Shown one piece after another: positions 1,629 to 55,365 of a DNA stretch of 64,000 nucleotides. Numbering within the stretch: position 1 is the stretch's first letter; each line of letters opens with the position of its first letter. The notes beneath the pieces are model-generated. The model was not told where the DNA came from and ran no database searches. It worked only from the letters and a program-made list of their open reading frames with translations. The stretch is from an uncultured Bacilli bacterium (lineage in GTDB: Bacteria > Bacillota_I > Bacilli_A > RF39 > UBA660), in contig CANQKX010000004.1 in NCBI GenBank assembly GCA_947624565.1, positions 3,273 to 67,272 of the forward strand, given 5' to 3'. A program made the translations under genes and the position numbers.

Positions 1629-2014
1629 ATCGAAGTTGTAATATTCTACGCTGTAAATGTAACAGCTTGCTAAGCTATCATATTAATATATAAAAAATAT
1701 CTAAATTACTAGGAAATTATATGAATTACGTATTTGTAACTTAAATACTTTCATTTCAACTATTGAGGTAGAGAATAAGTTGAAACTATTCATTACATTA
1801 ATTGATAGCTCACACAAGTTGTCATATTACTATACGAAATTAATTAGAGAAATTACAAAAAAGTATCAAAAAATTATTATTTTCATTAATTCTACTATAA
1901 AATCTTCACTAAAAAATACTCAAATCAAAATTTCAAAAACGTTTCTTGGCCCTACTTGGTTATACTTTTGAACAAGCATAAAATATGCTAAAAAGCATTT
2001 TATTAGTTCTGTGT

Positions 2015-2046
2015 GTATTCTCTTATTTAGATTTAAATGTTATAAT
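2015..2046 (+). promoter_or_regulatory. Putative sigma-A promoter with extended -10 for the methyltransferase gene
   Basis: The sequence tgtTATAAT (TG at 2038-2039, TATAAT at 2041-2046) sits ~30 nt upstream of the GGAGG SD at 2066-2070. Confidence 0.4.
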
Positions 2047-2077
2047 ATCCATTGAATTAGGAAATGGAGGAATGCTA

Positions 2078-4264
2078 ATGTCAAAAGACAAAAAAACTGT
2101 AATAAGAAACTTAAATAAAGCATTGAAAGAATTTGATAGTAAAAATAAAGAAAACACATATCAAAACTATATCTTCGTAATCTTATTCTATCGCTACCTA
2201 TCTATCGATATAGTGAAGTATGTAAAAAATAAATACAATAAAAATTACGAAAAATTATCTAACACTGAAGCTGAAGAATTAAAAAATGAAATTATAAGTG
2301 ACAAAGACTATTTCATTTTACCAAGTGAATTATTTCAAAATGTTATTAAAGAAAGACAAGATGATCCTTACTTAGATTCAGTTATAAATAGTATCTTCAA
2401 TAAAATAAGAAAATCGTCTAAATATGATATTTGTGATATATTTAAAAATATTGACGTTGAAGATGAAAAACTAGGGCATAGCAATGAAGAACGAAGTCAG
2501 GCTTTATCCGTAGCATTAAAATCTATTGGCAATATTAAGTACGACTTTGATGATTCTGAATTCGATCTATTTGGGCTTGTCTATGAATTATTACTTAATA
2601 AATATGATGATAATCTAAAAATCAGTTTAGGTAATGGTGTATATTATACTCAAAGTACATTAGTTAAACTACTAATAGAAATTAGCCAATTATATGTATC
2701 TAATCCCAAGAATGTATACGATCCAACATGTGGAAGCGGTTCTTTACTAGTTGAATACTCAAAGTTCAATAATAAAATTTCTTTTTATGGTCAAGAATTA
2801 TTAAGTGTTCCATATGGTTTATGCAAAATGAATATGATCTTACATGGTGTAAAAGACTATCATATTACCAATGCTGATACTTTACTTACCTATAGCAAAA
2901 GCGATAAAGAAAAGTATGAACTAATACTATCTAATCCACCTTTCTCTGTTAGTTGGAATACACCATCCATAAATGATGAACGTTTCAATAATATTCCTGT
3001 CCTTCCACCTAAGAATTACGCTGACTATGCTTTTATTTACCATATACTATATACATTAAACCAAAATGGTGTGGCATTAGTAATTAATGGACCAGCTATG
3101 CTAAGTAGAACATTAAAAGGTAATGATGAAACTTCAATACGTGAACATCTAGTAAAAGAAAATGTAATTGATACTATAATTCAGCTACCAAACAACTTTT
3201 TCCTAAGAACTAGTATTGGAGCATGCTTATTTGTATTAAGAAAGAATAAAGCTGATAAAAATATATTATTTATTGACGCAACATCTATATATACTACTTC
3301 TGGTCATACAAAAACATTCAATGATGCCAATGTAGAAAATATCATTGATATAATAAAACATAGAGAAAATATCGATGATTTATCTTATTTAGCAACACCT
3401 GAAGAAATAGCAGACAACAATTATACCTTCTCCATTGAATCATATATAAATTACAAAAAAAAGAAAACTTTCAAAAAAACAACTACTAATTTATTAACTC
3501 CCAAATTATTACAAGAATTAGAGTATCAAAATGCTAGAAGATATAAATACTTCTTTAATCAACTAAAAGATATGGATGCAAAGCTTCCAGAAATCATTAA
3601 GAAATTAACAAATGATCGTGATATACAAACAGTTAAATTGAGCGATATAGCTGTCTCAATAAAATCAGGAACAAAACTTACACAAATTGGGGCAATTAGT
3701 AATGATGATTTTCCATACTACTATATTACATCAAAGGAAATAGAAAATGGTTCAATTATCCCTATTAGCACTAGAAAAAGTGGTGATGGTAGAGATATAA
3801 AAGGCACCCAAAAGATCAATAAAGAAGCTTTAAAAGAACTATTAAGATTGTCTAACTTGGAAAAAGGCGACATACTCTTTACTCTATCCGAAACTGGTCC
3901 TAAAGTTGCTATAGTAAATAGAACTGACTTTGGTTTCAACCATTCAATCTATATTCTTAAACCAAAAAAAGATAAAATTAATCCTTTGTTCTTAAGATAT
4001 ATGTTGGAATCTGACTATATGAAAAATCAAATATCAAATAAATTATCTCATGCTAATGCAAAGTCTATAAAGATAGAAGAATTCAGAAATTTAACTATAC
4101 CAGATATACCATTAGAATCACAAGAACAAATAGCTTCATTATTAGAAAAATTACAAGGTGAGTATACAATGACTATGGATAGTTATATTTATGAAGAATA
4201 CTTATATAAAGAAATATATAATAATTATAAGAATCAATTTTTTAATGACATAACTAAAAAATAA
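2078..4264 (+). CDS. Type I-like DNA N6-adenine methyltransferase fused to a single HsdS target-recognition domain (M-S fusion, ~729 aa); no restriction subunit is present
   Basis: The tracked ORF begins at 1985, but GGAGG at 2066-2070 is correctly spaced only for the ATG at 2078 (MSKDKK). The N-terminus is HsdM_N-like. Motif I is VYDPTCGSGSLLV and motif IV is LSNPPFS. The methylase ends in an HsdM-like tail (NNYTFSIESYI). About 280 further residues follow with HsdS features (VKLSDIAVSIKSG..., conserved PLESQEQIASLLEKL). Confidence 0.8.
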   Translation: MSKDKKTVIRNLNKALKEFDSKNKENTYQNYIFVILFYRYLSIDIVKYVKNKYNKNYEKLSNTEAEELKNEIISDKDYFILPSELFQNVIKERQDDPYLDSVINSIFNKIRKSSKYDICDIFKNIDVEDEKLGHSNEERSQALSVALKSIGNIKYDFDDSEFDLFGLVYELLLNKYDDNLKISLGNGVYYTQSTLVKLLIEISQLYVSNPKNVYDPTCGSGSLLVEYSKFNNKISFYGQELLSVPYGLCKMNMILHGVKDYHITNADTLLTYSKSDKEKYELILSNPPFSVSWNTPSINDERFNNIPVLPPKNYADYAFIYHILYTLNQNGVALVINGPAMLSRTLKGNDETSIREHLVKENVIDTIIQLPNNFFLRTSIGACLFVLRKNKADKNILFIDATSIYTTSGHTKTFNDANVENIIDIIKHRENIDDLSYLATPEEIADNNYTFSIESYINYKKKKTFKKTTTNLLTPKLLQELEYQNARRYKYFFNQLKDMDAKLPEIIKKLTNDRDIQTVKLSDIAVSIKSGTKLTQIGAISNDDFPYYYITSKEIENGSIIPISTRKSGDGRDIKGTQKINKEALKELLRLSNLEKGDILFTLSETGPKVAIVNRTDFGFNHSIYILKPKKDKINPLFLRYMLESDYMKNQISNKLSHANAKSIKIEEFRNLTIPDIPLESQEQIASLLEKLQGEYTMTMDSYIYEEYLYKEIYNNYKNQFFNDITKK

Positions 4265-8503: not shown

Positions 8504-9394
8504 TTATTTTCTATTTCTTGGATGACATTTATTAAATACATCTCTTAAATGTTCATTACTTACATGTGTATATATCTCTGTTGAAGATAATGATTCGTGA
8601 CCCAAAAGTTCTTGAACTGCCAATAAATCACAACCATTATCCAAAAGATGTGTAGCAAACGTATGTCTAAACATATGTGGAGTTATATTTAATTTTATAC
8701 TTGTTCTTTTTATAATATCATCTATTATTTGTTCAATTCTTCTTGTTGTTAATCTATCTTTTTTTTCTCCTACAATTAAATATTCACTTTCTGTTTGCAT
8801 AAGTAATTTTTTTCTGCCATCATTTATATACATATTCATTATATCATTAGCATAATCACCAAAAGATACAATTCTTTCTTTGCTACCTTTACCAAATATT
8901 AATATAGTTTTATTACTAAAATCTATATCTTTTAATTTTATATTAACAAGTTCAGATACCCTTATACCACATCCATATAATATCTCTAAAATAAGTTTTT
9001 CTCTTTGACCTTCTTTAGTATTAATATTAGGTACATTAAATATTTCTTCAATATTATTATAGTTAATAAACTTAGGTATTCTTTTTTCCTTTTTAGGAGA
9101 CGATATTAACAAAAACGGATTTGATTTAATTTTATTATTTATAACCAAATATTTATAAAATGTTCTAAGTGAACTTAATTTTCTAGATATTGATGATTTG
9201 GAATTATTCTTATCAGTTAAATAATTGAGATATTTAATACATTCATTATAATTCATATTTTTATAATCTAATTTTTCATTTTTTAAAAATATATTAAATT
9301 CCTGTATATCTCTAGTATAATTTTTACAAGTAAAATCAGAATAATTTTTCTGATATTTTAAATATTCTATAAAATTATTTATATTTTTTTCCAT
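8504..9394 (-). CDS. Tyrosine site-specific recombinase of the XerC/XerD family
   Basis: The C-terminal catalytic region is HMFRHTFATHLLDNGCDLLAVQELLGHESLSSTEIYTHV (R..HxxR..Y). The N-terminal core-binding region is MEKNINNFIEYL...SISRKLSSLRTFYKYL. The tracked ORF extends 28 codons further upstream, and the true start is uncertain. Confidence 0.8.
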   Translation of the reverse strand: MEKNINNFIEYLKYQKNYSDFTCKNYTRDIQEFNIFLKNEKLDYKNMNYNECIKYLNYLTDKNNSKSSISRKLSSLRTFYKYLVINNKIKSNPFLLISSPKKEKRIPKFINYNNIEEIFNVPNINTKEGQREKLILEILYGCGIRVSELVNIKLKDIDFSNKTILIFGKGSKERIVSFGDYANDIMNMYINDGRKKLLMQTESEYLIVGEKKDRLTTRRIEQIIDDIIKRTSIKLNITPHMFRHTFATHLLDNGCDLLAVQELLGHESLSSTEIYTHVSNEHLRDVFNKCHPRNRK

Positions 9395-10148
9395 ATGGAG
9401 TATTATCCATTTCATCTGGAATATACCAATCATCATATTCAATTTCTTCTTTTGGTTGTTGATAATCTTCATCTTCACGTGTTAGACAAATCTTTTTCTT
9501 TTTTTCTTTTTTACTATTTAATGCTTTTAAATATTCTTTTTCTAAATTTCTTCCTGCTATTTCACATTTATATAAATTTTTGTCTGATGGTCTATTATCC
9601 CTTTTATTTAATTCTTCTCTTTCTTCCGCATCAAGTGTATAAAATATAAAATCTCTTATTATGTTATAATATGGTTCTATTTTTTTAATAAAGAAATTAT
9701 AATAATTTGCATCATATTTAAAATTTTTATCAGTTATCATATTATATAAATCATAAATAACTGCATATTTGTATTTTTTTGTATAAATTTTTCTATTTGT
9801 ATCATCTAATAAAAATAAGAAATAAAAATTACCTTCAATATAACTAATTATTCTTTCTTTATCTTTTTTTGAAATAAATATACGAGCATTTCTTCTAAGT
9901 AAAGAATCAGTTATAAATTTATAGTCTTTAAACATAACAAATCTTCGACCTTCACTATCTTGAATATAAAAATTATATTTTTCTATATCATTAATATCGA
10001 TACTATTACTATAATTTAATATTTTTTCAAATAATTCTTTACTATCTTTAAATTCTGTTGTAAATTGATCAATTTCAATAAGATTACCTTCACTTACATT
10101 TATTTTTATATTATTATCTTTAGATTGTATATTAAGAACCAATTGCAT
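9375..10148 (-). CDS. Hypothetical protein (257 aa, Lys/Tyr-rich with an acidic C-terminus)
   Basis: The ORF has an AAGGTAGGT SD-like sequence upstream. No recognisable motifs were found. Confidence 0.4.
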   Translation of the reverse strand: MQLVLNIQSKDNNIKINVSEGNLIEIDQFTTEFKDSKELFEKILNYSNSIDINDIEKYNFYIQDSEGRRFVMFKDYKFITDSLLRRNARIFISKKDKERIISYIEGNFYFLFLLDDTNRKIYTKKYKYAVIYDLYNMITDKNFKYDANYYNFFIKKIEPYYNIIRDFIFYTLDAEEREELNKRDNRPSDKNLYKCEIAGRNLEKEYLKALNSKKEKKKKICLTREDEDYQQPKEEIEYDDWYIPDEMDNTPYGKKYK

Positions 10149-29735: not shown

Positions 29736-32699
29736 TTATTTTTCTACTACATATATTCCTTTTTTACTATCTACATAATCAAAATAGTATCCTGTATTAT
29801 TAACATCTCCATTATTTTTTGTTTCTACTTTATCTGTATAAAATTCCAAATTTCCTATATTATCTGATGAGAATCCATCTGTTTGTGATGTACCATTTAT
29901 AACAACTTTATTGGAATAATACCCTCCAATTGGTTCTCCACCAGTAATTATGCCAAAATTACTACCTGCCGTTAACTTTCCTCCTTCTACTATTCTTGAT
30001 GTATTATAACTGTAAGTTAATCCATATATAATTCCTACATAATCTTGGCCTGTTACATTTGCTTCTATTATTATATTTGGAGTTTCAACATATGAATCAG
30101 TACTTCCTACTAATCCTCCTACACAGTTATTCCCTATTATATTGGAATTTCTTATTACTATTTCTCTTGCTGTCGACCATGCATATGGACTTGCTCTACC
30201 TAATACACCGGCTAATCCTCCTACATTATCTTTTCCTGTTACATTTATATTCTCTATGTTTAAGCCTACCAATTCTCCTGTAATCATATATCCTACTATT
30301 CCTATGTTATCTACTTTTGATGCATGTATTGTTACATTATTTATTGTCTTTGCTCCTCCATCTAATGTTCCAGTAAGTTGATTGTAATAACTTCCAAGCA
30401 TATAAAATTTATTATTACTAAAGTTTAAATCATTTTTTATTTTATATACTTTATTTAGTTGTAAAGTTGCTGTCTTCCAATCTTTCTCATTTTCTATTAA
30501 ATATGGTTCTTCTTTTGTTCCTTGTCCTTTTAAATTGATGTCCATTGGATTTTTTTCTACACTCTTTAAAATTATTTCTCCTTTATCATCATAATCAAAA
30601 TAATATCCTGTGGAGTTATTATCTCCTCCTATCCATGTATCTAATCCTGCTGCTTCATAAAAGTTTATATCATTTAAATCTGTTTCATAATTAAATCCAT
30701 CACCTTGGTGCACTTCATTTATAGTAACTTTATTGGAATAATACCCTCCAATTGGTTCTCCACCAGTAATTATGCCAAAATTACTACCTGCCGTTAACTT
30801 TCCTCCTTCTACTATTCTTGATGTATTATAACTGTAAGTTAATCCATATATAATTCCTACATAATCTTGGCCTGTTACATTTGCTTCTATTATTATATTT
30901 GGAGTTTCAACATATGAATCAGTACTTCCTACTAATCCTCCTACACAGTTATTCCCTATTATATTGGAATTTCTTATTACTATTTCTCTTGCTGTCGACC
31001 ATGCATATGGACTTGCTCTACCTAATACACCGGCTAATCCTCCTACATTATCTTTTCCTGTTACATTTATATTCTCTATGTTTAAGCCTACCAATTCTCC
31101 TGTAATCATATATCCTACTATTCCTATGTTATCTACTTTTGATGCATGTATTGTTACATTATTTATTGTCTTTGCTCCTCCATCTAATGTTCCAGTAAGT
31201 TGATTGTAATAACTTCCAAGCATATAAAATTTATTATTACTAAAGTTTAAATCATTTTTTATTTTATATACTTTATTTAGTTGTAAAGTTGCTGTCTTCC
31301 AATCTTTCTCATTTTCTATTAAATATGGTTCTTCTTTTGTTCCTTGTCCTTTTAAATTGATGTCCATTGGATTTTTTTCTACACTCTTTAAAATTATTTC
31401 TCCTTTATCATCATAATCAAAATAATATCCTGTGGAGTTATTATCTCCTCCTATCCATGTATCTAATCCTGCTGCTTCATAAAAGTTTATATCATTTAAA
31501 TCTGTTTCATAATTAAATCCATCACCTTGGTGCACTTCATTTATAGTAACTTTATTGGAATAATACCCTCCAATTGGTTCTCCACCAGTAATTATGCCAA
31601 AATTACTACCTGCCGTTAACTTTCCTCCTTCTACTATTCTTGATGTATTATTATTAACGGTTGAACCATATATAATTCCTACATAATCTTGGCCTGTTAC
31701 ATTTGCTTTCGCTATTATACTTGTAGTTTCAACATATGAATCAGTACTTCCTACTAATCCTCCTACGTAGTTATTCCCTGTTATATTGGAATTTCTTATT
31801 ATTATTTCTCTTGCTGTCGACCATGCATATGGACTTGCTCCTAATACACCTACTAATCCTCCTACATTATCTTTTCCTGTTACATTTATGTTCTCTAGGT
31901 TTAATCCTACTATCTCCCCTGCACTCATGTGTCCAAATAATCCTACATTATCATCATTTGGCAAATTTATTGTTAAATTACTTATTGTTTTTGCTCCTCC
32001 ATCAAATTTACCTTTAAATGGATTTTCTGCAGTTCCTATTGGTTTAAAACTTTCTTCTCCACATGTGTTTTTATTATCACTCATGTCTAAATCATTTCTT
32101 AGTTTTATTACTTTTCCTTCATATGATGTCCCATTATTTACATCTCTTGATAATTTATATAAATCACTTACTGAATCTATATATAATGTTACTTTATCTT
32201 CATCTTCTTCTAATTCACATGGTTTTTTATCTGTGATTGGTTTTTCTTCTTCTATTACACATTTAAATCCTTCATCTGTTGATCTTCCTACTTTTACACC
32301 TTTTTCATTTTCGTTTTTTATCGCACACCATTTCTTATTCTTACTTACTAATTTTTCTACTATTACATTTTTATTTTCTAATAGTGTTAAACTTCCACTA
32401 CTTGGTTTATCTCCCTTAAATTTTAATAATCCTACTTCATTTTCATTTATTTGTACTGTATCTTTCCCATTTTCTCCATATATATACTCTATTGGTAGAC
32501 TTCTTGCTTCTCCTTTTATATCATCTAATTCATACTGCATTTTTGCTGTATGTACCATTAATTCTACACTTTCTTTATATGCTTGCATTTCTGCTTTTTC
32601 TATAACATCTAATACTTTTGGTACTGCCAATACCATTATTATTGCTAGTATTACTATAACCGCTAGTAACTCTATTAATGTAAATCCTTTTTTCTTCAT
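29736..32699 (-). CDS. Large surface protein with a type IV prepilin-type N-terminal cleavage/methylation signal and three tandem GLUG-like beta-helix repeat modules
   Basis: The N-terminus is MKKKGFTLIELLAVIVILAIIMVLAVPKV, a class III signal of the G-F-T-L-I-E type. The ~274-aa modules contain GGLVG/GGLAG motifs, each preceded by a G-T-x-E-[NE]-P-[YF] motif. Upstream lie an extended -10 (tgaTATACT) and an AGGAGAA SD. Confidence 0.7.
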   Translation of the reverse strand: MKKKGFTLIELLAVIVILAIIMVLAVPKVLDVIEKAEMQAYKESVELMVHTAKMQYELDDIKGEARSLPIEYIYGENGKDTVQINENEVGLLKFKGDKPSSGSLTLLENKNVIVEKLVSKNKKWCAIKNENEKGVKVGRSTDEGFKCVIEEEKPITDKKPCELEEDEDKVTLYIDSVSDLYKLSRDVNNGTSYEGKVIKLRNDLDMSDNKNTCGEESFKPIGTAENPFKGKFDGGAKTISNLTINLPNDDNVGLFGHMSAGEIVGLNLENINVTGKDNVGGLVGVLGASPYAWSTAREIIIRNSNITGNNYVGGLVGSTDSYVETTSIIAKANVTGQDYVGIIYGSTVNNNTSRIVEGGKLTAGSNFGIITGGEPIGGYYSNKVTINEVHQGDGFNYETDLNDINFYEAAGLDTWIGGDNNSTGYYFDYDDKGEIILKSVEKNPMDINLKGQGTKEEPYLIENEKDWKTATLQLNKVYKIKNDLNFSNNKFYMLGSYYNQLTGTLDGGAKTINNVTIHASKVDNIGIVGYMITGELVGLNIENINVTGKDNVGGLAGVLGRASPYAWSTAREIVIRNSNIIGNNCVGGLVGSTDSYVETPNIIIEANVTGQDYVGIIYGLTYSYNTSRIVEGGKLTAGSNFGIITGGEPIGGYYSNKVTINEVHQGDGFNYETDLNDINFYEAAGLDTWIGGDNNSTGYYFDYDDKGEIILKSVEKNPMDINLKGQGTKEEPYLIENEKDWKTATLQLNKVYKIKNDLNFSNNKFYMLGSYYNQLTGTLDGGAKTINNVTIHASKVDNIGIVGYMITGELVGLNIENINVTGKDNVGGLAGVLGRASPYAWSTAREIVIRNSNIIGNNCVGGLVGSTDSYVETPNIIIEANVTGQDYVGIIYGLTYSYNTSRIVEGGKLTAGSNFGIITGGEPIGGYYSNKVVINGTSQTDGFSSDNIGNLEFYTDKVETKNNGDVNNTGYYFDYVDSKKGIYVVEK
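29895..31640. repeat. Perfect or near-perfect 822-bp tandem direct repeat (~2.1 copies) inside the prepilin/GLUG gene; a third, diverged copy extends to ~32030
   Basis: Antisense shadow ORFs 30059..30283 and 30881..31105 give identical translations (offset exactly 822). The same holds for 30142..30381 and 30964..31203. Direct reading shows identity from ~29895 to ~31640. Confidence 0.85.
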
Positions 32700-32737
32700 T
32701 TTATTCTCCTACTCTTATTTTAGTATATCATATTTTT

Positions 32738-32769
32738 ATACAAAAAAAAAGATATCAATATAATATCTT
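32738..32769 (-). terminator. Rho-independent terminator after the 32770..34605 gene
   Basis: The hairpin aaagatat-caatataat-atcttt is followed on the minus strand by T-runs. Confidence 0.4.
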
Positions 32770-34605
32770 TTACTCAACTACATAAACTCCATAATTATCT
32801 TTTTTATCAATATTTTTCTTTACTATTAAATAAATTTTTTTATCGTTTAAATTTATTTTAACTGATGATAATTCTAAATTATTTAGTTTTTTTATTTGAT
32901 CTGTTTTATAATTTAATATTTTTACATATTTATCTGCAGTATTGTTTATTATAATTCCTCTATATGGTTGAACTTCTTTTCCTGATTCATCATTTAATGT
33001 TTCATTTTCTTTAAGTTTATATTTATATGTTTTATCTTTATTTATATTATATATATTTATAATATTATTTTTTATATATATATAATTTTCTAAATTAGCA
33101 ACAAAGTAATCATTACTATTAACATTAATTATTTTTTTACCATTTTTATTTAATATTATTATACTATCATTTTTATCTTTATATCTATATAAAATATCAT
33201 TGTTAATTTTAATAATAGATACTTTATTATCACTTAACAATTTTTCTTTTTTCGCTGAATATATTGATAATGAACTAGTTGGTTCTTGCCCTATAACTAA
33301 TTTTTTATCACATATTGCAATATCATTATTTGATTGAAATAATATTTTATTTTTCTTATCATATAATATATATTTATTTGAATTATTATATTTTATTACT
33401 TTATACCCACCATCATAACCTGTATAACTATATATAGTTTGATTTTTCTTTGTTTCAAAAACTTTCTTATTTTCACCTAAATTATATATAATAGATTTTT
33501 TATTATTACATGAATTTTTTAAACATGTTAACTTAAAATAATATTCATTATTATTTGACTTTAATTTATCTATAGATAAACGAGCATAACCATTATCTTT
33601 TTTATAATTATATATTTTTTCATATTTATTATTTTTTGTATTAAGTACACCTGCTGAATTTTCTTTTTTATTATCTACTAAAATATATTTTTGATTTTTT
33701 TCATATACACTTTCTTCATATAAATCATATGTTTCTAAATCTAATTGTTTTGTTAACTCTTCAATATAAAGTTCACTTTCTAATCTTTTTTGTTTACCAT
33801 TTTCAAGTAATGTATATTTAATATTTTTATTATCAATTATAGTATAACTTAAATCTTCATTTATAATATAACTATTAAAACTATTTCCAATTATTTTCTC
33901 TTTATCTAAACTAAAATAATTATAATTATTCTCTTTTTCATTTTTTAAAATAAAGAAGTCATTATTTTCAGATACTTTAGATATACTATAATTATCTAAT
34001 ATTTTATTTGCTTTTTTATCTAATAAAATATAATTATCATCAATTTTAATTTGTATATATTTTTTATCTAAATATGATTTAATATCAGAAATATTTTCAT
34101 ATATTATTTTTCCTTTTTTATCTAGTAATGTATATAAATTTTTTTCTTTATTAAACATTGATATAACATTATCATTTATGATAGTTAGTTCATTTATTGT
34201 TTCATATATAATATCACCATTTTTATCTCTAACAGAATAATTTATAATATTTAATTTTGAATCAACTAATTTTGAAATATAATAATCATCACCTATTTGC
34301 ACAGGAATTTGTTTAGTTTCATTCTTATTTTCCTTATAATCTGCTACTTTCTTACCATCATTATTATATATTAATGATTCATTTTTTTCTTTAACTATAA
34401 AACCATTACAAAATTCATCTATACATTCAACATCATCATACTTTACACTTAAAATCTTTCTAACACCAGATATACTATCTTCATCTTTAAATTTAATAAA
34501 TGCAAGATGTCCCACTACAACTATAAAAAATATTATTACAATAGTAATTACTATTTTTAATATCAATGATTTATTTATATTATTAATTTTATTTTTTGTT
34601 GTCAT
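32770..34605 (-). CDS. Membrane-anchored repetitive extracellular protein (hypothetical)
   Basis: The N-terminal TM anchor is LILKIVITIVIIFFIVVVGHLAFI. Degenerate ~25-30 aa repeats rich in K/N/Y/I follow (LDKKGKIIYENISDIKSY, LDKKANKILDNYSISK...). They resemble WG-type beta-propeller repeats but lack the WG motif. Confidence 0.45.
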   Translation of the reverse strand: MTTKNKINNINKSLILKIVITIVIIFFIVVVGHLAFIKFKDEDSISGVRKILSVKYDDVECIDEFCNGFIVKEKNESLIYNNDGKKVADYKENKNETKQIPVQIGDDYYISKLVDSKLNIINYSVRDKNGDIIYETINELTIINDNVISMFNKEKNLYTLLDKKGKIIYENISDIKSYLDKKYIQIKIDDNYILLDKKANKILDNYSISKVSENNDFFILKNEKENNYNYFSLDKEKIIGNSFNSYIINEDLSYTIIDNKNIKYTLLENGKQKRLESELYIEELTKQLDLETYDLYEESVYEKNQKYILVDNKKENSAGVLNTKNNKYEKIYNYKKDNGYARLSIDKLKSNNNEYYFKLTCLKNSCNNKKSIIYNLGENKKVFETKKNQTIYSYTGYDGGYKVIKYNNSNKYILYDKKNKILFQSNNDIAICDKKLVIGQEPTSSLSIYSAKKEKLLSDNKVSIIKINNDILYRYKDKNDSIIILNKNGKKIINVNSNDYFVANLENYIYIKNNIINIYNINKDKTYKYKLKENETLNDESGKEVQPYRGIIINNTADKYVKILNYKTDQIKKLNNLELSSVKINLNDKKIYLIVKKNIDKKDNYGVYVVE

Positions 34606-36239: not shown

Positions 36240-37280
36240 CTACCTTTTCATTATTTCTTTTATATATTTGCCACTTTCAGATAAATATTTATCATCCAAA
36301 CTATCTATAGGAGATCCTTCTAATAATAAAGCAGAAGATTCATTTTTATCAGATAAAGACCAGTTAGCCCAAGAAATATTATTTTCATCCATAAAATCTA
36401 CCCATTTATTTGCTTCTTGTAAATAAACTCCACCATTACCTGATGCATCACTTACTCCCCATTCACTTACAAATATAGGTATTTTATTTATTGCTTCTTT
36501 TACTCTTTGCCTTAAATCATCTTTATGTGTACCTGCATAAAAATGAAATGCATACATTACATTTTTATCATTAATTGGATCTATCATAGGTTTATCTACT
36601 TCTTGACTCCATGTTGGTGTCCCAACTATTATAATGCTATTTTTACTATTTTTTCTTATTACATCAATAACTTCATTAGCATATGGTTTTATTGTTTCAC
36701 TCCATGTAACATTAGAATTTGGCTCATTACATATTTCATAAATAACATTTGGATAATCTTTATATTTACTACTCATTCTACTAAAAAAATCTTTTGCCTC
36801 CTTTATATATGTTAAAGGATTATTATCACTTAATATATGCCAATCAATTATTACATACATATCTAATTTTATTGCCGTATCTACAATTTTTATTACATCA
36901 TTTTCTAAATTTCTATTTTCAATATATCCACCCTCAGCAGTATACATTGCTATTCTAAATAAATTACTATTCCACTCATCTCGTAATTTTTTTATCATTT
37001 CTTCATTAGCAAATTTACCATACCACTGAATACCATGTGTACTCATTCCTTTTAATTGAATCTTATTACCTTTTTCATTTACAAGAGTATTATTCTTTAT
37101 TTCTAACCATCCATTAGAACTAACTAAATTATTATCAATAGTAGTACTTGATTGCACATCTTTTTTAACGTCTTGTTTATTACTTTTTTGATTATTATCC
37201 TTTTTTAAGTACAAAAATCCAATAACTACAATTAAAGAAATAATTATAAATAATAATATTTTTTTCATATTTATCACCAT
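36240..37280 (-). CDS. Secreted glycoside hydrolase family 5 endoglucanase (cellulase)
   Basis: A signal or TM helix sits at the N-terminus. The GH5 catalytic acid lies in the NEP context (YEICNEPN) and the nucleophile region is VSEWGVSDASGNGG. Confidence 0.8.
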   Translation of the reverse strand: MVINMKKILLFIIISLIVVIGFLYLKKDNNQKSNKQDVKKDVQSSTTIDNNLVSSNGWLEIKNNTLVNEKGNKIQLKGMSTHGIQWYGKFANEEMIKKLRDEWNSNLFRIAMYTAEGGYIENRNLENDVIKIVDTAIKLDMYVIIDWHILSDNNPLTYIKEAKDFFSRMSSKYKDYPNVIYEICNEPNSNVTWSETIKPYANEVIDVIRKNSKNSIIIVGTPTWSQEVDKPMIDPINDKNVMYAFHFYAGTHKDDLRQRVKEAINKIPIFVSEWGVSDASGNGGVYLQEANKWVDFMDENNISWANWSLSDKNESSALLLEGSPIDSLDDKYLSESGKYIKEIMKR

Positions 37281-37436: not shown

Positions 37437-38489
37437 TTATTCATTATTTAGTTTATCCATAAAATTAAAGTAATGATTTTTTTTATTTTCTAATATTGGA
37501 TAATCATTATAATCTCCAACATTTATTAATGGATAATCTCCTTGTTTTATTTCTATTTGATATTCAAATTTATCTACAAAAAATTCACCATATATCTTAT
37601 TTATACTTTCTATATTTCTTGATATAACGTAAATTTTTTGATTATTAGATATTGCATTTTCAAGTAAATCATCTAAGTACTCTATTCTTGTAAAAATATC
37701 AAAATTATCAATAATATAATTAAATGAAATGTTATTTTTTCTTGACACTTTTGAAACTTGATTTAAAAGTATATTAGTAAATCTATTATACTGAGAATTA
37801 CTAATTATAAATATTGCTGTTTTATTATCTAACTTACTTAAATCTATTTCATTACTGCATAATAAATTTAATAAATTTTCACTTGTAACATATTTATTTA
37901 ATTCTGTTTTTAATACAGATATAATACCACTTCTAGTTTCTACTGGTGAAAGTGCAGTTGGTGATAAGAATGTATATTCTGGACTTGTTAAATCTAGGTT
38001 ATTAATATATTGCTTTAATTCTGCATAATTTTTATTTGATTGTTCTGTTTGAGAAATCATTACTTGAACACTAGCTAAATTTATTTCTTCTTCTTTTGCT
38101 TCTTTAAATAATAATAATATAATTCCTGTTAAATAATCTGATGCACAATTACCCCAGAAAGGATCTATTGCAAAATCATTTTTCATAAGTTCATATGAAA
38201 AGTTTTTAATTAAACTAATAGCCATATCTTTCTTATTATCTTTATATAATTTATATGGTAATAATAAAGGATTAAAACCATTTGATTTTGATGCATCTTT
38301 ATAATTTATTACATATACATTATATCCATTTTCTTTTAACTTTTTTCCAAAAGTTTTATAATATTCTTCTTTATTATCAACAATTAACATATTCTCATTT
38401 TTACTTATTATATTTTTTACTTCATTAAACATTAATCCTGTAGTTTTTCCTACAGATGTTTTTCCTAAAATTAAATTTGTATTTTTCAT
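37437..38489 (-). CDS. Soluble TraG/VirD4-like (type IV coupling protein family) P-loop ATPase, lacking the N-terminal TM domain
   Basis: Walker A is LILGKTSVGKTTGL. Conserved T4CP blocks are LIVDNKEEYYKTF...GYNVYVINYKDASKSNGFNPL and DPFWGNCASDYLTGIILLL. Walker B is like YIIDNFDIF. The downstream QKIYVISRNIESINKIYGE matches the T4CP QS..QL..YG motif. The protein is only 350 aa. Confidence 0.6.
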   Translation of the reverse strand: MKNTNLILGKTSVGKTTGLMFNEVKNIISKNENMLIVDNKEEYYKTFGKKLKENGYNVYVINYKDASKSNGFNPLLLPYKLYKDNKKDMAISLIKNFSYELMKNDFAIDPFWGNCASDYLTGIILLLFKEAKEEEINLASVQVMISQTEQSNKNYAELKQYINNLDLTSPEYTFLSPTALSPVETRSGIISVLKTELNKYVTSENLLNLLCSNEIDLSKLDNKTAIFIISNSQYNRFTNILLNQVSKVSRKNNISFNYIIDNFDIFTRIEYLDDLLENAISNNQKIYVISRNIESINKIYGEFFVDKFEYQIEIKQGDYPLINVGDYNDYPILENKKNHYFNFMDKLNNE

Positions 38490-50780: not shown

Positions 50781-51584
50781 TTATTCTTTAAAAAAATCTC
50801 TTTTTCTAAATGATGATGTAATAAATCTAAAAGCTGCTCGTGAATTAGTAAGCCATGTAAACTTAACATTATTTTTTTTATTATTTATAATTTTATCTAC
50901 CATATATTTAGCAATTGTTTCTGGATAATCACCAAGTATATTATAAACCTTTTTAGTTTTATCATCTAGTATTATTTTTTCCTTATCTCCTAATGAAGTA
51001 TTAATAAAATTTGTTATCATGATCCCTGGTGTAATTTTACCAATTAATACATTAGTATTTAACTTTTCTGATTCATATGCTAAACTTTCTGTAAAATAAG
51101 TAATTGCTCTTTTAGCAGTTCCATATATAGAAAGACCTAATATTTTTGCATCATTACTACCATGACCTTCTACGTTATATATTTGCCCATGACCTTGATT
51201 AATCATAACAGGCATGATTAATTTACTACATAATATACTACCCTTTAAATCAATATCAATTAAAGTATCAATTACATTTTTTTCTAATTCCCATATAGGT
51301 TTATTTGGTTGATTTACTCCTGCATTATTTATCCATATATCAATAGTTTTAAATTCTTTTATAGTATTATCTATTAAATTTCTTATTGTATCTTCTTTAG
51401 TTATATCTACTTCAAAAGACAATATTTTACCCTTTGAAGTTATACTTTGTAATTTATTTTTTGCAATATCTAAATTTTCCTTTGATACATCACATAAAAC
51501 AACATTATAATTTTTTTCTCTAAATAATTTAAGTAACTCAAAACCAAATCCTCTTGCACTACCCGTTATTACAACTGTATTCAT
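50781..51584 (-). CDS. Short-chain dehydrogenase/reductase family oxidoreductase
   Basis: The Rossmann motif is VVITGSARGFGFEL. The catalytic motif is YGTAKRA (YxxxK). Confidence 0.75.
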   Translation of the reverse strand: MNTVVITGSARGFGFELLKLFREKNYNVVLCDVSKENLDIAKNKLQSITSKGKILSFEVDITKEDTIRNLIDNTIKEFKTIDIWINNAGVNQPNKPIWELEKNVIDTLIDIDLKGSILCSKLIMPVMINQGHGQIYNVEGHGSNDAKILGLSIYGTAKRAITYFTESLAYESEKLNTNVLIGKITPGIMITNFINTSLGDKEKIILDDKTKKVYNILGDYPETIAKYMVDKIINNKKNNVKFTWLTNSRAAFRFITSSFRKRDFFKE

Positions 51585-52242
51585 TATTTTTCACATCCTT
51601 TATATTTTTTAAATAATCTATTATATATAAAACACATAAATCTAATACTTTATCTAATTGTTCTTTATTCATAAAAATATAATTATCTATTTTTATTCTA
51701 CTTGGATCATCAACATCCATATTAGCATTTATAATATATTGCTGTAAAAATTCTTTATCATATTTTACATCACCTAAATCAGGAATATCATTAATTACAT
51801 TTATATTTTTAAACTTACTTATATATCCATTATTAATTAAATATTCATCATATTTCCAAAAATCATTTTTTTTATATTTCCATATTAATCTATGCTCTGG
51901 ATATATTATCTCATTATCTTTTTTTATACCAATTGCATAATTATTATCAAATATTATATAATTATCAAATACATATTTATTATAAAATCTATCAGTTAAT
52001 ATATGAATTAAATATCCAATCATTATTTCATTATCTAATTTATCTTTATATTTTAATAAAAATTTATCTGGATTTGCTAAATTATCATAACCATGTCCAT
52101 CCGCTTGAAAATGACTTAATTTATGATTCCTATCAATTGTCAAATCAGGTAATACACTGCCGAGCATTAAATTATCTAAATTCATATTTAATGTTTCATT
52201 TACCCTTTTTGCAATATACATATGTATTTTATGACTAGGCAT
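51559..52242 (-). CDS. Hypothetical protein with His-rich motifs (possible metal-dependent hydrolase)
   Basis: The motifs are HKIHMYIA...GSVLPDLTID...HFQADGHGYD...HILTD. Its stop overlaps the SDR start by 26 nt, implying an operon. Confidence 0.3.
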   Translation of the reverse strand: MPSHKIHMYIAKRVNETLNMNLDNLMLGSVLPDLTIDRNHKLSHFQADGHGYDNLANPDKFLLKYKDKLDNEIMIGYLIHILTDRFYNKYVFDNYIIFDNNYAIGIKKDNEIIYPEHRLIWKYKKNDFWKYDEYLINNGYISKFKNINVINDIPDLGDVKYDKEFLQQYIINANMDVDDPSRIKIDNYIFMNKEQLDKVLDLCVLYIIDYLKNIKDVKNNEYSCNNG

Positions 52243-52301: not shown

Positions 52302-52502
52302 TTAATCTATTGAAATTAATTCATATTCTCTTGTTCCAATACCTAATTTTTCTGCTTCTTCTACTGTACGAATTGCATGTTTTTCATTCATTCTATTTAC
52401 TAGTGGTGCCTTACCTTCATCCGTAGAATTAATAATTTGGTCATAACAACATTGATCAATAGCAACTGGATCAACTGATGCAAATATTCCAATATCTTTC
52501 AT
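52302..52502 (-). pseudogene. Truncated 3' fragment (C-terminal ~66-89 codons) of a DUF362 gene, duplicated from 54481..55365
   Basis: The 66-aa ORF is ~90% identical to the C-terminus of the 54481..55365 protein. Nucleotide identity extends over ~52301..52571 versus ~54487..54751. There is no upstream start or N-terminal domain. Confidence 0.6.
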
Positions 52503-52662
52503 TTCTGGATCATGAGGATTTGAATCACAATCACAATCAATAGAAATATTATTTGCAATATTTATATATACGATATTTTACTTTTTTGCTAAAAAAAGTA
52601 AATCTTTTTCCAAATTTACCATTTTTAACTAATTTATTACTGAAAATTTGATCAAATATGCA

Positions 52663-54279
52663 TTAATCAATTATTTGTGAACTATAAAAATAATAATTAC
52701 CCTTATGTTTTTTAAATGTATATTTAACCATAGATAATTTATCATAATATTCTGTTATATCAATATCATCTTTACTATAAGTAGCATGTAATTCTTTTAT
52801 TGGTCTTGTTTCTTGAATGTCTTTATATATTCCAGATGGTTCAAAATTTGTATCACTACCATCACTATAAATTAATCGCGCTACATCTATAAAAGCAAAT
52901 TTTTCATAAATTATAATTTTATCACCATTTATAACATAATCATAATATTTATTTTCTATCCAATTTTCAAGAAGCCCACCACACCCGCCTTCTACAGCTA
53001 TGTATTTTTTTTCTTTTTTATCATATTTATACATATCACATTGAGTAGGCATAAAGTCTTTTTTACTATATTTTATACTATCTCCAAATACCTTTTTCAT
53101 AGCTTTATCTAAACTATTGATATCAATTATTTTAATATTTTCTATGTAACTGCCGTCATCTGATTTTTTTACATCATCAATTATTTCATTTTCTGGTATT
53201 TGATTGAAAGCTAATAACAATTTTTGATTATCACTAATATCATTAATAGTAACCTTTTGATTTTCATAAAAGTACCTTTCTTTTAATAAATCATCGTGAA
53301 CTGCTACCATTTTATATAAATCTTTTATAGTTTCATCACTTTCTTGATAGAAAAAAGTATCAGAATTTAAAGAATAGAGATAATTACCATTATTATATAA
53401 ATCTAATGCTGTTGTTTTTTGAAGTATACTTTTACTTCCATTTTCATCAAGTATTTCATTTAACGTTATTAATACTTTTTGTTTTTCAAGTTTGTAAATT
53501 CCATAAAAAGTTTCATCACTTTCAAAGTTATGTAATGTAATACTCCCATCTTTATAAAATTTCATTTCCGATTCTATACCTTCAAATATTTTATCTTTAT
53601 TTACTTTTAAATAACGACCTGTTGTCTTAATATTATTGTTGACATTTGGTATAAAATATGCAAATATACTAAAATAACTATCATCATCTTCATAAATAAT
53701 CACATCAATAATTTTATCTTTATAGAATACAAATTTCATTTTTTTAGATTGATCTTTTACTCTGTTATTCAAGTCATAATTAACATTTACTAAAGCACTA
53801 TATAAATTATTTTTTATCTTAATCACATCAAATGTATTTTGAACAAGTTCTATCTTTTCAATTTTATTATTTGTAGCAAGACTTTGAATATAAAATTTTA
53901 TTCTATATTCCATTTCTAATTCTGCTTTAGTTTTTTGGTCTTTATCATTATTATGCCAAGTTCCATCTGGCGTTTTATAATTTTCATATATTTTTTCATA
54001 CTCTTTTTCAAAATTGTTAAAATCATTTTCAATTTTTTTTAATGTATATATTCCTTTACTATCTATATTTTTAAAAATTTCATTAGAATTTTGTGAGGCT
54101 GCAAATAAACTAATAAAATTTGTAATTATATTTTTATACGATTCTTTTTTATCTTTCTCTACTTCAAAATTTTCCATTACATTATTAGTATTATTCTTAA
54201 TTTCACTTTTACTTTTAGTACAACCCGATAATATAATTAATAAACAAAGTACACTTATTAATATTACTTTTTTAAACAT
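52663..54279 (-). CDS. Lipoprotein (hypothetical, 538 aa)
   Basis: The signal peptide has the lipobox LSGC (MFKKVILISVLCLLIILSGCTKS). An A/T hairpin terminator follows at ~52585..52612. Confidence 0.6.
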   Translation of the reverse strand: MFKKVILISVLCLLIILSGCTKSKSEIKNNTNNVMENFEVEKDKKESYKNIITNFISLFAASQNSNEIFKNIDSKGIYTLKKIENDFNNFEKEYEKIYENYKTPDGTWHNNDKDQKTKAELEMEYRIKFYIQSLATNNKIEKIELVQNTFDVIKIKNNLYSALVNVNYDLNNRVKDQSKKMKFVFYKDKIIDVIIYEDDDSYFSIFAYFIPNVNNNIKTTGRYLKVNKDKIFEGIESEMKFYKDGSITLHNFESDETFYGIYKLEKQKVLITLNEILDENGSKSILQKTTALDLYNNGNYLYSLNSDTFFYQESDETIKDLYKMVAVHDDLLKERYFYENQKVTINDISDNQKLLLAFNQIPENEIIDDVKKSDDGSYIENIKIIDINSLDKAMKKVFGDSIKYSKKDFMPTQCDMYKYDKKEKKYIAVEGGCGGLLENWIENKYYDYVINGDKIIIYEKFAFIDVARLIYSDGSDTNFEPSGIYKDIQETRPIKELHATYSKDDIDITEYYDKLSMVKYTFKKHKGNYYFYSSQIID

Positions 54280-54480: not shown

Positions 54481-55365
54481 TTATATTTCAATTAATTCAT
54501 AGTCAGTAGAACCTAAACCTAATTTTTCTGCTTCTTCTACTGTATGAATTGCATGTTTTTCATTCATTCTATTTACTAGTGATGCCTTACCTTCATCCGT
54601 AGAATTAATAATTTGGTCATAACAACATTGATCAATAGCAACTGGATCAACCGATGCAAATATTCCAATATCTTTCATTTCTGGATCATGAGGATTTGAA
54701 TCACAATCACAATCAATAGAAATATTATTTGCAATATTTATATATACCATATTTTCCTTCTTAAAATAATCTACAACTGATTTATCTGCTTCTGCCATAC
54801 TTTCTAAGAAACCATCTTGATCATCTGTATAGGACCACATTTCATCTGGATCAGTAGTAATACCAACAGAATGAATCCATGCCTTACCATTTCTTGATGC
54901 AACTCCAATACTCATATTTTTAAGTGCTCCTCCAAATCCACCCATCGCATGACCTTTAAAATGAGACAACATAAGCATTGAATCATAATTTTTTATATGT
55001 GATCCTACATAATTTATACCATTTAAATGTTTACCACCATTAATAGGTATTGTAATTTCACCTTCACAGTCCATAATATCACATGGTGCGATTTTGGTAA
55101 ATCCATGTTCTTCAATTGCTTTTAAATGATCTTCTACATCAAATCTTCTACCTCTATATGCAGTACAACACTCTACAATTGTACCATTTAGTTTATTTAC
55201 AAGACCTTTTATTAAATCAGGATTCAAAAAATTATGACCTCCTGGTTCACCTGTTGATATTTTTACAGCAACTTTACCTTTTAAATCTACATTTAATACT
55301 TCATAAATTTTAATTAAACTCTCACTTGTTATTTCTTTTGTAAAATATACTTTTGATTTTTCCAT
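54481..55365 (-). CDS. DUF362-domain protein
   Basis: The N-terminus is KVYFTKEITSESL. The conserved block is LSHFKGHAMGGFGGALKNMSIG. The protein is 294 aa. Confidence 0.65.
   Translation of the reverse strand: MEKSKVYFTKEITSESLIKIYEVLNVDLKGKVAVKISTGEPGGHNFLNPDLIKGLVNKLNGTIVECCTAYRGRRFDVEDHLKAIEEHGFTKIAPCDIMDCEGEITIPINGGKHLNGINYVGSHIKNYDSMLMLSHFKGHAMGGFGGALKNMSIGVASRNGKAWIHSVGITTDPDEMWSYTDDQDGFLESMAEADKSVVDYFKKENMVYINIANNISIDCDCDSNPHDPEMKDIGIFASVDPVAIDQCCYDQIINSTDEGKASLVNRMNEKHAIHTVEEAEKLGLGSTDYELIEI

Follow-up and report, generated by a model that had tools for sequence, protein, structure and literature searches.

An exact, in-frame 822-bp tandem duplication within the gene of a predicted modular type IV pilin from an uncultured Bacilli bacterium

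Location and identity of the repeat

We analyzed a 64,000-nucleotide (nt) stretch of contig CANQKX010000004.1 (positions 3,273–67,272; NCBI GenBank assembly GCA_947624565.1) from an uncultured Bacilli bacterium of the RF39 lineage; the whole stretch is referred to as the window hereafter. The window has a guanine-plus-cytosine content of 24% and is free of ambiguous bases. This base composition and the presence of a PolC gene fit a low-GC organism of the Bacillota type. Positions 29736–32699 of its minus strand hold one open reading frame (ORF) of 987 residues, as identified from the ORF list and its translation. The stop codon occupies 29736–29738, and one Shine–Dalgarno-like sequence (AGGAGA) is located a few bases 5′ of the ATG. 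Following Raynaud et al. 2021 (PMC8179133), modular type IV pilin is the most fitting name for the encoded protein, and its gene carries one large and exact tandem repeat.

Comparison of the window with itself gave 926 bp as the longest exact match at an offset of 822 bp, 29904–30829 being identical to 30726–31651. The 822-bp periodicity is perfect across 29904–31651; this stretch is 1748 bp in length and corresponds to 2.13 units. Taken as whole units, copy A (29904–30725) and copy B (30726–31547) are 100% identical over 822 bp, both by BLAST and as part of the exact run. The original prediction had placed an exact tandem duplication of about 822 bp at 29895–32030; the duplication was borne out, and its coordinates are correct to ∼10–20 bp. 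In the approximate phase of that prediction (starting from 29894), self-alignment of the copies gives 820 identical positions out of 822, and in the exact phase the identity is 100%.

When the unit 29904–30725 was compared to the window by BLAST, one third match was found at 31548–32007 (89% identity over 465 bp, with small indels), and there was no further copy in the window outside the three. A separate repeat search also returned three copies, at 100%, 99–100% and 93%/81%; the third one is 93% identical at 31538–31837 and 81% identical at 31840–32024, with a 3-bp shift. In surrogate sequences (n = 10) generated from a first-order Markov model of the window, the longest exact repeats are 17–21 bp in length, which excludes chance as the source of the 926-bp match. 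Tandem Repeats Finder, with its maximum period of 500, missed the 822-bp repeat; this is no evidence against it. A mobile element or a paralogous gene copy was ruled out, as the unit is absent elsewhere in the window and lies wholly within one ORF.

The repeat is identical at the DNA level, and its unit length is a multiple of three (822 = 3 × 274). Deletion of one unit leaves an intact ORF of 713 residues, whereas addition of one unit gives an ORF of 1261 residues. The event had been predicted to be recent, and the absence of any difference over 822 bp supports this, compared to the identities of 87–98% for intragenic repeats in relatives of the gene.

The host gene and its product

The N-terminus of the protein is MKKKG|FTLIELLAVIVILAIIMVLAVP. 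The class III (prepilin) signal covers residues 1–27 (32619–32699, minus strand); it contains the leader MKKKG, with predicted cleavage before Phe6, and a hydrophobic α1-N segment. The residues that follow the leader are FTLIE, so that Gly(−1), Phe(+1) and Glu(+5) are all in place. The N-methylation motif was matched by both Pfam N_methyl (PF07963; 29.7 bits, with a cut-off of 21.2) and NCBIfam TIGR02532 (29.9 bits, with a cut-off of 16.3). When the family profile was compared to the PDB sequences, solved pilins such as geopilin, MshA and S. sanguinis PilE1 matched residues 1–60 only.

The structure was predicted with AlphaFold2, using an alignment of 24 three-module homologs as input; the mean predicted local distance difference test (pLDDT) score of the model is 87.8 and its predicted template modelling (pTM) score is 0.78. 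As assigned by DSSP, the predicted pilin module (residues 1–150; 32250–32699, minus strand) has a pilin fold, composed of one long α1 helix (residues 8–61) and a small β-sheet head with its strands within residues 70–139. The pilin module is followed by three predicted β-solenoid modules, whose fold is akin to that of IgA1-protease-type and other β-helix proteins. In each of the three, the solenoid is followed by one small α/β sub-domain, which ends with GYYFDY, and by a short linker. Modular pilins are defined as a pilin module with one or more grafted, functional C-terminal modules, whose domains have no specific link to type IV filament biology (Raynaud et al. 2021, PMC8179133), and the predicted architecture corresponds to this definition.

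The gene had originally been described as an adhesin gene. The prepilin motif, which scores above the Pfam threshold, and the predicted pilin fold point to a modular type IV pilin instead; adhesion is suggested by the predicted β-helix fold of the modules, and in this sense 'adhesin' is a reasonable functional guess. Besides the pilin gene, there is no other prepilin-type ORF in the 64-kb window. The promoter scan was uninformative, with 27 promoter-like sites compared to 24 expected, and the terminator scan found none.

In the 5′ third of the pilin gene, there is one overlapping antisense ORF of 325 residues (31786–32763, plus strand, TTG start). This ORF and the duplicated plus-strand ORFs of 74 and 79 residues in the repeat were judged to be non-coding by-products of the AT-rich sequence. 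The same applies to the plus-strand shadow ORFs (e.g. 30059–30283 and 30881–31105) whose translations had been used in the original prediction; the pilin motif, the confidently predicted fold and the homologs, which number in the hundreds, all belong to the minus-strand frame.

Anatomy of the duplication

Read in the direction of the gene, the perfectly periodic part covers nt 1049–2796, which correspond to residues 350–932. Module 1 (residues 160–459; 31323–32222, minus strand) was delimited by module alignment, tail motif and structure. The older, diverged copy makes up its N-terminal part, and from residue 350 onward module 1 is identical to module 2. Module 2 (residues 460–733; 30501–31322, minus strand) is chimeric; as revealed by self-comparison at an offset of 274 residues and by the module alignments, its N-terminal part is identical to module 3 and its C-terminal part is identical to module 1. 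Module 3 (residues 734–987; 29739–30500, minus strand) is identical to module 2 up to residue 932, after which it continues into a diverged tail (…GYYFDYVDSKKGIYVVEK). In the family consensus alignment, such a diverged terminal tail is typical of the last module.

The duplication unit begins at residue 350, within the solenoid of module 1. The original proposal that one copy equals one 274-residue module therefore holds in that the unit is in frame and carries one module's worth of protein, but the boundaries of the unit do not coincide with those of the structural modules. It had also been stated that an older, diverged third copy follows the two identical ones. Such a copy exists, but it follows on the plus strand only; with the gene encoded on the minus strand, the older copy is the N-terminal-most module of the protein.

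One 104-bp stretch is common to all three modules (31548–31651, 30726–30829 and 29904–30007, encoding residues 350–384, 624–658 and 898–932, respectively), and the length of the exact match is the sum of the unit and this stretch (926 = 822 + 104). A fresh tandem duplication of a given length produces an exact self-match of at least that length, so the surplus of 104 bp represents homology that existed before the event, and the exchange or template switch would have occurred inside the 104-bp stretch. The chimeric nature of the middle module is exactly the pattern that would result from one unequal exchange between two ancestral modules. From these features, we infer that the junction arose through one single crossover event within a defined zone of 104 bp.

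Beyond the exact run, older and diverged similarity between module 1 and modules 2 and 3 extends over 31652–32007; the identity is ∼93% over 189 nt, falls to ∼81%, with one 3-bp indel, and then decays to background. Older similarity also extends on the other side, where the C-terminal tail of module 3 (29768–29810) is 79% identical to 30584–30626.

Within 31652–31840 (gene nt 859–1047), modules 1 and 2 differ at 13 codons, 11 of them nonsynonymous and 2 synonymous. The differences are tightly grouped at two places (STVNNNT versus LTYSYNT, and TTSIIAK versus TPNIIIE), just upstream of the exact run in gene orientation. Although the numbers are small, the clustering could reflect either diversifying selection on surface loops of the solenoid or mosaic patches of gene conversion.

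Relatives and variation in module number

The exact protein is known from one single NCBI contig of 84.6 kb, and its protein cluster has one member. In total, 495 homologs were found at E ≤ 1e-10; nearly all of them match PF07963, they are mostly from gut metagenome assemblies and all are at most 49% identical to the window protein. The nearest homolog in a database of 5.8 billion proteins (P0004, 49% identity) is 709 residues in length and contains two modules. Together with the intact 713-residue ORF that is left after removal of one unit, this fits a two-module ancestor. The scan of genome contigs with the family alignment mostly recovered the generic pilin N-terminus, and L004 and L005 were the only full-length relatives among its matches. 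The full-length relatives in named genomes belong to metagenome-assembled genomes (MAGs) of uncultured 'Tenericutes'/Bacilli.

Among 124 full-length proteins, the number of modules ranges from two to four; the counts are based on the tail motif and are approximate, protein length being the safer guide. Three modules is the commonest architecture and occurs in many independent assemblies. In one lineage, with pilin heads of at least 75% identity, two modules were counted in 27 proteins and three modules in 13. We also performed a nearest-neighbour test with one protein from each of 20 lineages. For 36 of the 50 modules, the closest module resides in the same protein, and the median identity is 62%, compared to 48% for modules in other lineages. 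The modules of the window protein are 68–90% identical among themselves and 38–53% identical to the best module elsewhere.

Intragenic DNA repeats are also present in relatives, with identities of 95% over 438 bp in L001, 87% over 1265 bp in L002, 93% over 311 bp in L003 and 97.7% over 776 bp in L004 (8001–11282 of uncultured Tenericutes UMGS872; period 915). Such independent repeats in distant relatives indicate that the family repeatedly duplicates or homogenizes its modules. The event in the window is the youngest seen in the family.

One pair of loci is particularly informative with respect to module number. L001, on a 1.3-Mb NCBI contig, encodes 798 residues with two modules, and L002, on an ENA scaffold, encodes 1065 residues with three. 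The two loci, which come from a species related to that of the window, share the same neighbours and, over 7.9 kb of flanking sequence, an identity of 98.7%. Between their pilin genes there is an in-frame difference of 801 nt, which equals one module, and an identity of 98.5% elsewhere; L002 is a short-read scaffold. This comparison supports variation in module number as a property of the family, with the caveat that short-read assemblies can collapse such repeats.

Many relatives (L004, P0002, P0005, P0010, P0053 and others) possess a C-terminal extension after the last module, which is absent from the window protein. The extension is either one Cys-rich tail (…CKVTYGAEVKGCYRY…YYSCN) or one domain of ∼130 residues (…APTCTL…CYYFSYG…).

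Fold of the modules

Foldseek comparison of the model to the PDB gave one significant match, the β-helix domain of the Bacteroides ovatus 'putative immunoglobulin A1 protease' (PDB 3n6z; E = 5.9e-5, probability 1.0). The weaker matches that follow are all right-handed parallel β-helices, including the L. reuteri SRRP adhesin, IgA1 proteases, PL6 lyases, phage tailspikes, pertactin and Ag43, and the predicted modules resemble these solved representatives of the fold. Peptidase_M26_N (PF05342) was matched by 8 of 24 relatives (best E = 3.7e-9), and some distant tblastn matches on plasmids are annotated as 'GLUG motif-containing protein'. The model suggests that the three modules after the pilin head are right-handed β-solenoids that resemble the N-terminal (GLUG-type) domain of IgA1 proteases, in the sense of a related fold and not of family membership.

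Like the GLUG and Peptidase_M26_N domains (PDB 3n6z, 6xjb and 7uvk), the modules are predicted to form right-handed parallel β-helices, with turns of the G-x-[LIV]-[VAI]-G type (NVGGLVG here). Different from the proteins that carry those domains, the window protein has no metalloprotease domain, and its solenoids are followed by the family-specific sub-domain (…LDTWIGGDN..GYYFDY…).

Proposed mechanism and alternative explanations

We propose that the ancestor was a two-module gene of 713 codons, whose modules were already partly similar. One unequal exchange between sister strands, or one replication slippage or template switch, within the 104 bp identical in both modules would have converted it into the three-module gene, the middle module of which combines the front of the last module with the back of the first. 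Direct repeats are acted on by both RecA-dependent unequal exchange and RecA-independent template switching. The perfect in-frame repeat of 822 bp lends itself well to further events in which whole modules are lost or gained; later recombination or slippage would add or remove modules and leave the protein intact, and one would expect genes with different module numbers within populations. The protein would probably be cut by a prepilin peptidase and, as suggested by its conserved signal and predicted fold, may be displayed on a type IV filament, most likely at the tip. The β-helix modules could then bind, or perhaps cleave, glycans, proteins or other extracellular ligands, and how far and with what valency they are displayed would depend on how many there are.

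In our view, the gene quite probably contains a genuine and recent duplication of one module in frame; such doubt as remains chiefly concerns the assembled copy number. The true number of units could be one, or more than two, if the assembler had passed an arbitrary number of times through one loop of a de Bruijn graph. Several observations weigh against our reading at this point. The exact repeat of 926 bp cannot be spanned by short reads, and the count of 2.13 units could err in either direction; the periodic stretch of 1748 bp exceeds short reads and typical inserts, and perfect identity between the copies is also expected from loop traversal. The original prediction had warned that the repeat would collapse in short-read assemblies, and for comparable genes, mis-counting of DNA-identical adhesin repeats by short reads has been documented (PMC6868369); the warning applies to the present assembly as well. 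Members of a related protein cluster are cut off at the ends of 2–4 kb contigs (592 and 314 residues), indicating that assemblies of this pilin family do break at the repeats. The relatives are themselves mostly from short-read metagenome assemblies, so some of the differences between two and three modules could be collapse artefacts, though L001 resides on a 1.3-Mb contig. However, the usual outcome for such repeats in an assembly is collapse or a break and not expansion, the contig is long (84.6 kb) and without Ns, and the three-module architecture is the commonest of the family in many independent assemblies. Moreover, at least two modules exist in any case, because the diverged flanks (the N-terminal part of module 1 and the tail of module 3) are unique sequence. 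An artefact of copy number is therefore quite unlikely in our view.

The identity of the copies could alternatively be the product of gene conversion, in which three modules of long standing were homogenized by one recent non-reciprocal tract between neighbours and the copy number did not change. Conversion does have a place in this family: the modules within one protein are homogenized across it, high-identity tracts shorter than the period in L001 (a two-module gene), L003 and L004 are most simply explained by conversion or by old duplications, and the graded identity beside the exact run (from 93% to 81%) suggests earlier exchanges. For the window gene, it seems very improbable. The length of a conversion tract is arbitrary, and the tract would need to cover more than one whole unit in a shifted register, whereas an exact run of just over one period (926 versus 822 bp) is specifically what a fresh tandem duplication leaves behind; in addition, the nearest relative has two modules and the de-duplicated ORF of 713 residues is intact. 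With respect to ongoing instability, no second allele of the window's species was found: neither the scan of genome contigs with the window protein nor the scan of metagenome contigs returned any relatives, a contig look-up with the exact protein gave no record, and its protein cluster holds no further member. Since the searched data hold no second allele, the earlier suggestion of a length-variation hotspot at the pilin locus is supported by analogy only.

Our reading of the function may be wrong even if the repeat is real. The prepilin-like N-terminus could serve as the membrane anchor or secretion signal of a surface β-helix protein or enzyme that is never displayed on a pilus, and the module number could be neutral. 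Pfam scans of ∼40 ORFs in the 64-kb window detected no gene for a prepilin peptidase or for an assembly ATPase or platform protein, and similar scans of the neighbours in the relatives L001/L002, L004, L005, L040 and L060 detected no machinery beside the pilin gene; those neighbours are housekeeping genes, with no conserved operon partner. The absence of type IV filament genes thus holds for the window and for the adjoining genes in four genomic contexts, and the gene is an orphan in housekeeping neighbourhoods. Folds of the β-helix type include lyases and hydrolases, and the matches other than 3n6z are weak (E > 1e-3). The modules of the window protein gave no Pfam match at E ≤ 0.1, either to GLUG (PF07581) or to Peptidase_M26_N (PF05342), and for this reason the protein is called related in fold only. 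Arguing for display on a pilus, the class III signal (Gly−1, Phe+1 and Glu+5) and the α–β pilin head are kept in practically every one of the 124 full-length relatives, it is common for pilin genes to be dispersed at a distance from the machinery, in these MAGs as well, and large modular pilins are known to enter filaments (PMC8179133). We therefore regard a protein with no part in a pilus as unlikely, and consider that incorporation into a type IV filament and ligand binding by the modules may be the functions of the window protein.

Comparison with known systems

The catalogue of modular pilins includes S. sanguinis PilB, with one vWA module, and PilC, with one lectin module, and it also contains multi-copy cases such as one 860-residue pilin with 12 copies of one motif (PMC8179133). 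The window protein would share with these pilins the presumed binding of a ligand and its presentation by a filament. Different from PilB and PilC, it belongs to proteins with two to four tandem β-solenoid modules of ∼274 residues, which mostly lack a Pfam or InterPro signature and are DNA-identical in the window gene. The orphan gene is located apart from any pilus operon, MAGs of uncultured low-GC gut Bacilli/'Tenericutes' are the hosts, and the structure is a predicted one.

With respect to the repeat, the gene resembles those of the group B Streptococcus (GBS) alpha C protein and Rib, the B repeats of S. aureus SasG and Y. ruckeri Ilm, which have in-frame, DNA-identical repeats of hundreds of bp with the unit equal to one structural unit. 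Strains differ in the number of copies in these systems, and assemblies from short reads count them wrongly. Large identical repeats are attributed to the GBS alpha C protein by Michel et al. 1992, as cited in PMC5900788. The DNA-identical repeats of Ilm were under-counted in assemblies, and SasG gives ladders of copy number within one culture (PMC6868369). Compared to these proteins, which have from 8 to more than 20 units, the window gene has ∼2.1 identical units, and its unit (822 bp) is much larger. The anchor is a pilin module here and an LPXTG signal or an autotransporter there, and the copy-number variation was seen here in a related species only.

Identical in-frame repeats of variable number are classic for bacterial adhesins. 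The phenomenon is ordinary in kind for surface proteins, and the context of a pilin family is the more interesting lead. For users of these genomes, it means that assemblies and annotations likely mis-state the length of the protein at this locus. The junction provides an unusually clean snapshot of how repeat-module surface proteins grow, here apparently through one unequal exchange in 104 bp of prior identity. It also draws attention to a large and uncharacterized family of modular pilins from uncultured gut bacteria, with more than 490 homologs and two to four predicted β-helix modules. As the module number varies between close relatives, the family may become a tractable model for concerted evolution and for the gain of binding functions by type IV filaments.

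As a tentative possibility, these proteins may constitute one widespread and undescribed family of modular type IV pilins of giant size, carried by gut Bacilli/'Tenericutes' that are uncultured and have small genomes; the IgA1-protease-like modules of these pilins would undergo continual duplication, deletion and homogenization. If so, host-associated bacteria of which none has ever been grown in culture would be able to tune the length, the valency and perhaps the antigenicity of a pilus-tip adhesin rapidly.

Genomic neighbourhood and other observations

The pilin gene is an orphan among housekeeping genes. One ABC-F ATPase gene is located downstream of it, and the genes for PolC, FTHFS, PheS/T and PolA are nearby; the pilin genes of relatives reside in different, equally unrelated neighbourhoods. 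MAGs of uncultured gut Bacilli/'Tenericutes' (L007–L083) often contain several scattered prepilin-type genes per genome. Three prepilin-type loci each are present in CANQIS, CABSFU, OMST01, CACYWH, CALVQV and CAKOTU, and up to four small pilin genes stand in tandem in L021. No assembly machinery adjoins the pilin clusters of these related MAGs in the stretches examined. We found nothing directly relevant in the literature on type IV pili or competence in RF39/Tenericutes.

The upstream neighbour of the pilin gene (32770–34605, minus strand) encodes an Asn/Lys-rich membrane protein of 611 residues, with one N-terminal hydrophobic segment and no Pfam match. Its end (…NYGVYVVE) resembles the pilin's own C-terminus (…KGIYVVEK), which may be either coincidence or one shared terminal strand or motif. 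Among the housekeeping genes are also one GH5 cellulase gene (36240–37280) and one truncated-looking ORF of 350 residues (37437–38489) for a type IV secretion system coupling protein (VirD4/TraG-like). Farther off, the window contains genes for one tyrosine integrase (8504–9478) and one HsdM-type methylase (1985–4264).

A second near-exact direct repeat of 165 bp, with 1 mismatch, is located at 52407–52571 and 54583–54747, the spacing being 2176 bp. Its copy 1 lies between the ORFs 51559–52242 and 52663–54279, and copy 2 is inside one DUF362 ORF (54481–55365, minus strand); this repeat is probably a duplicated gene fragment.

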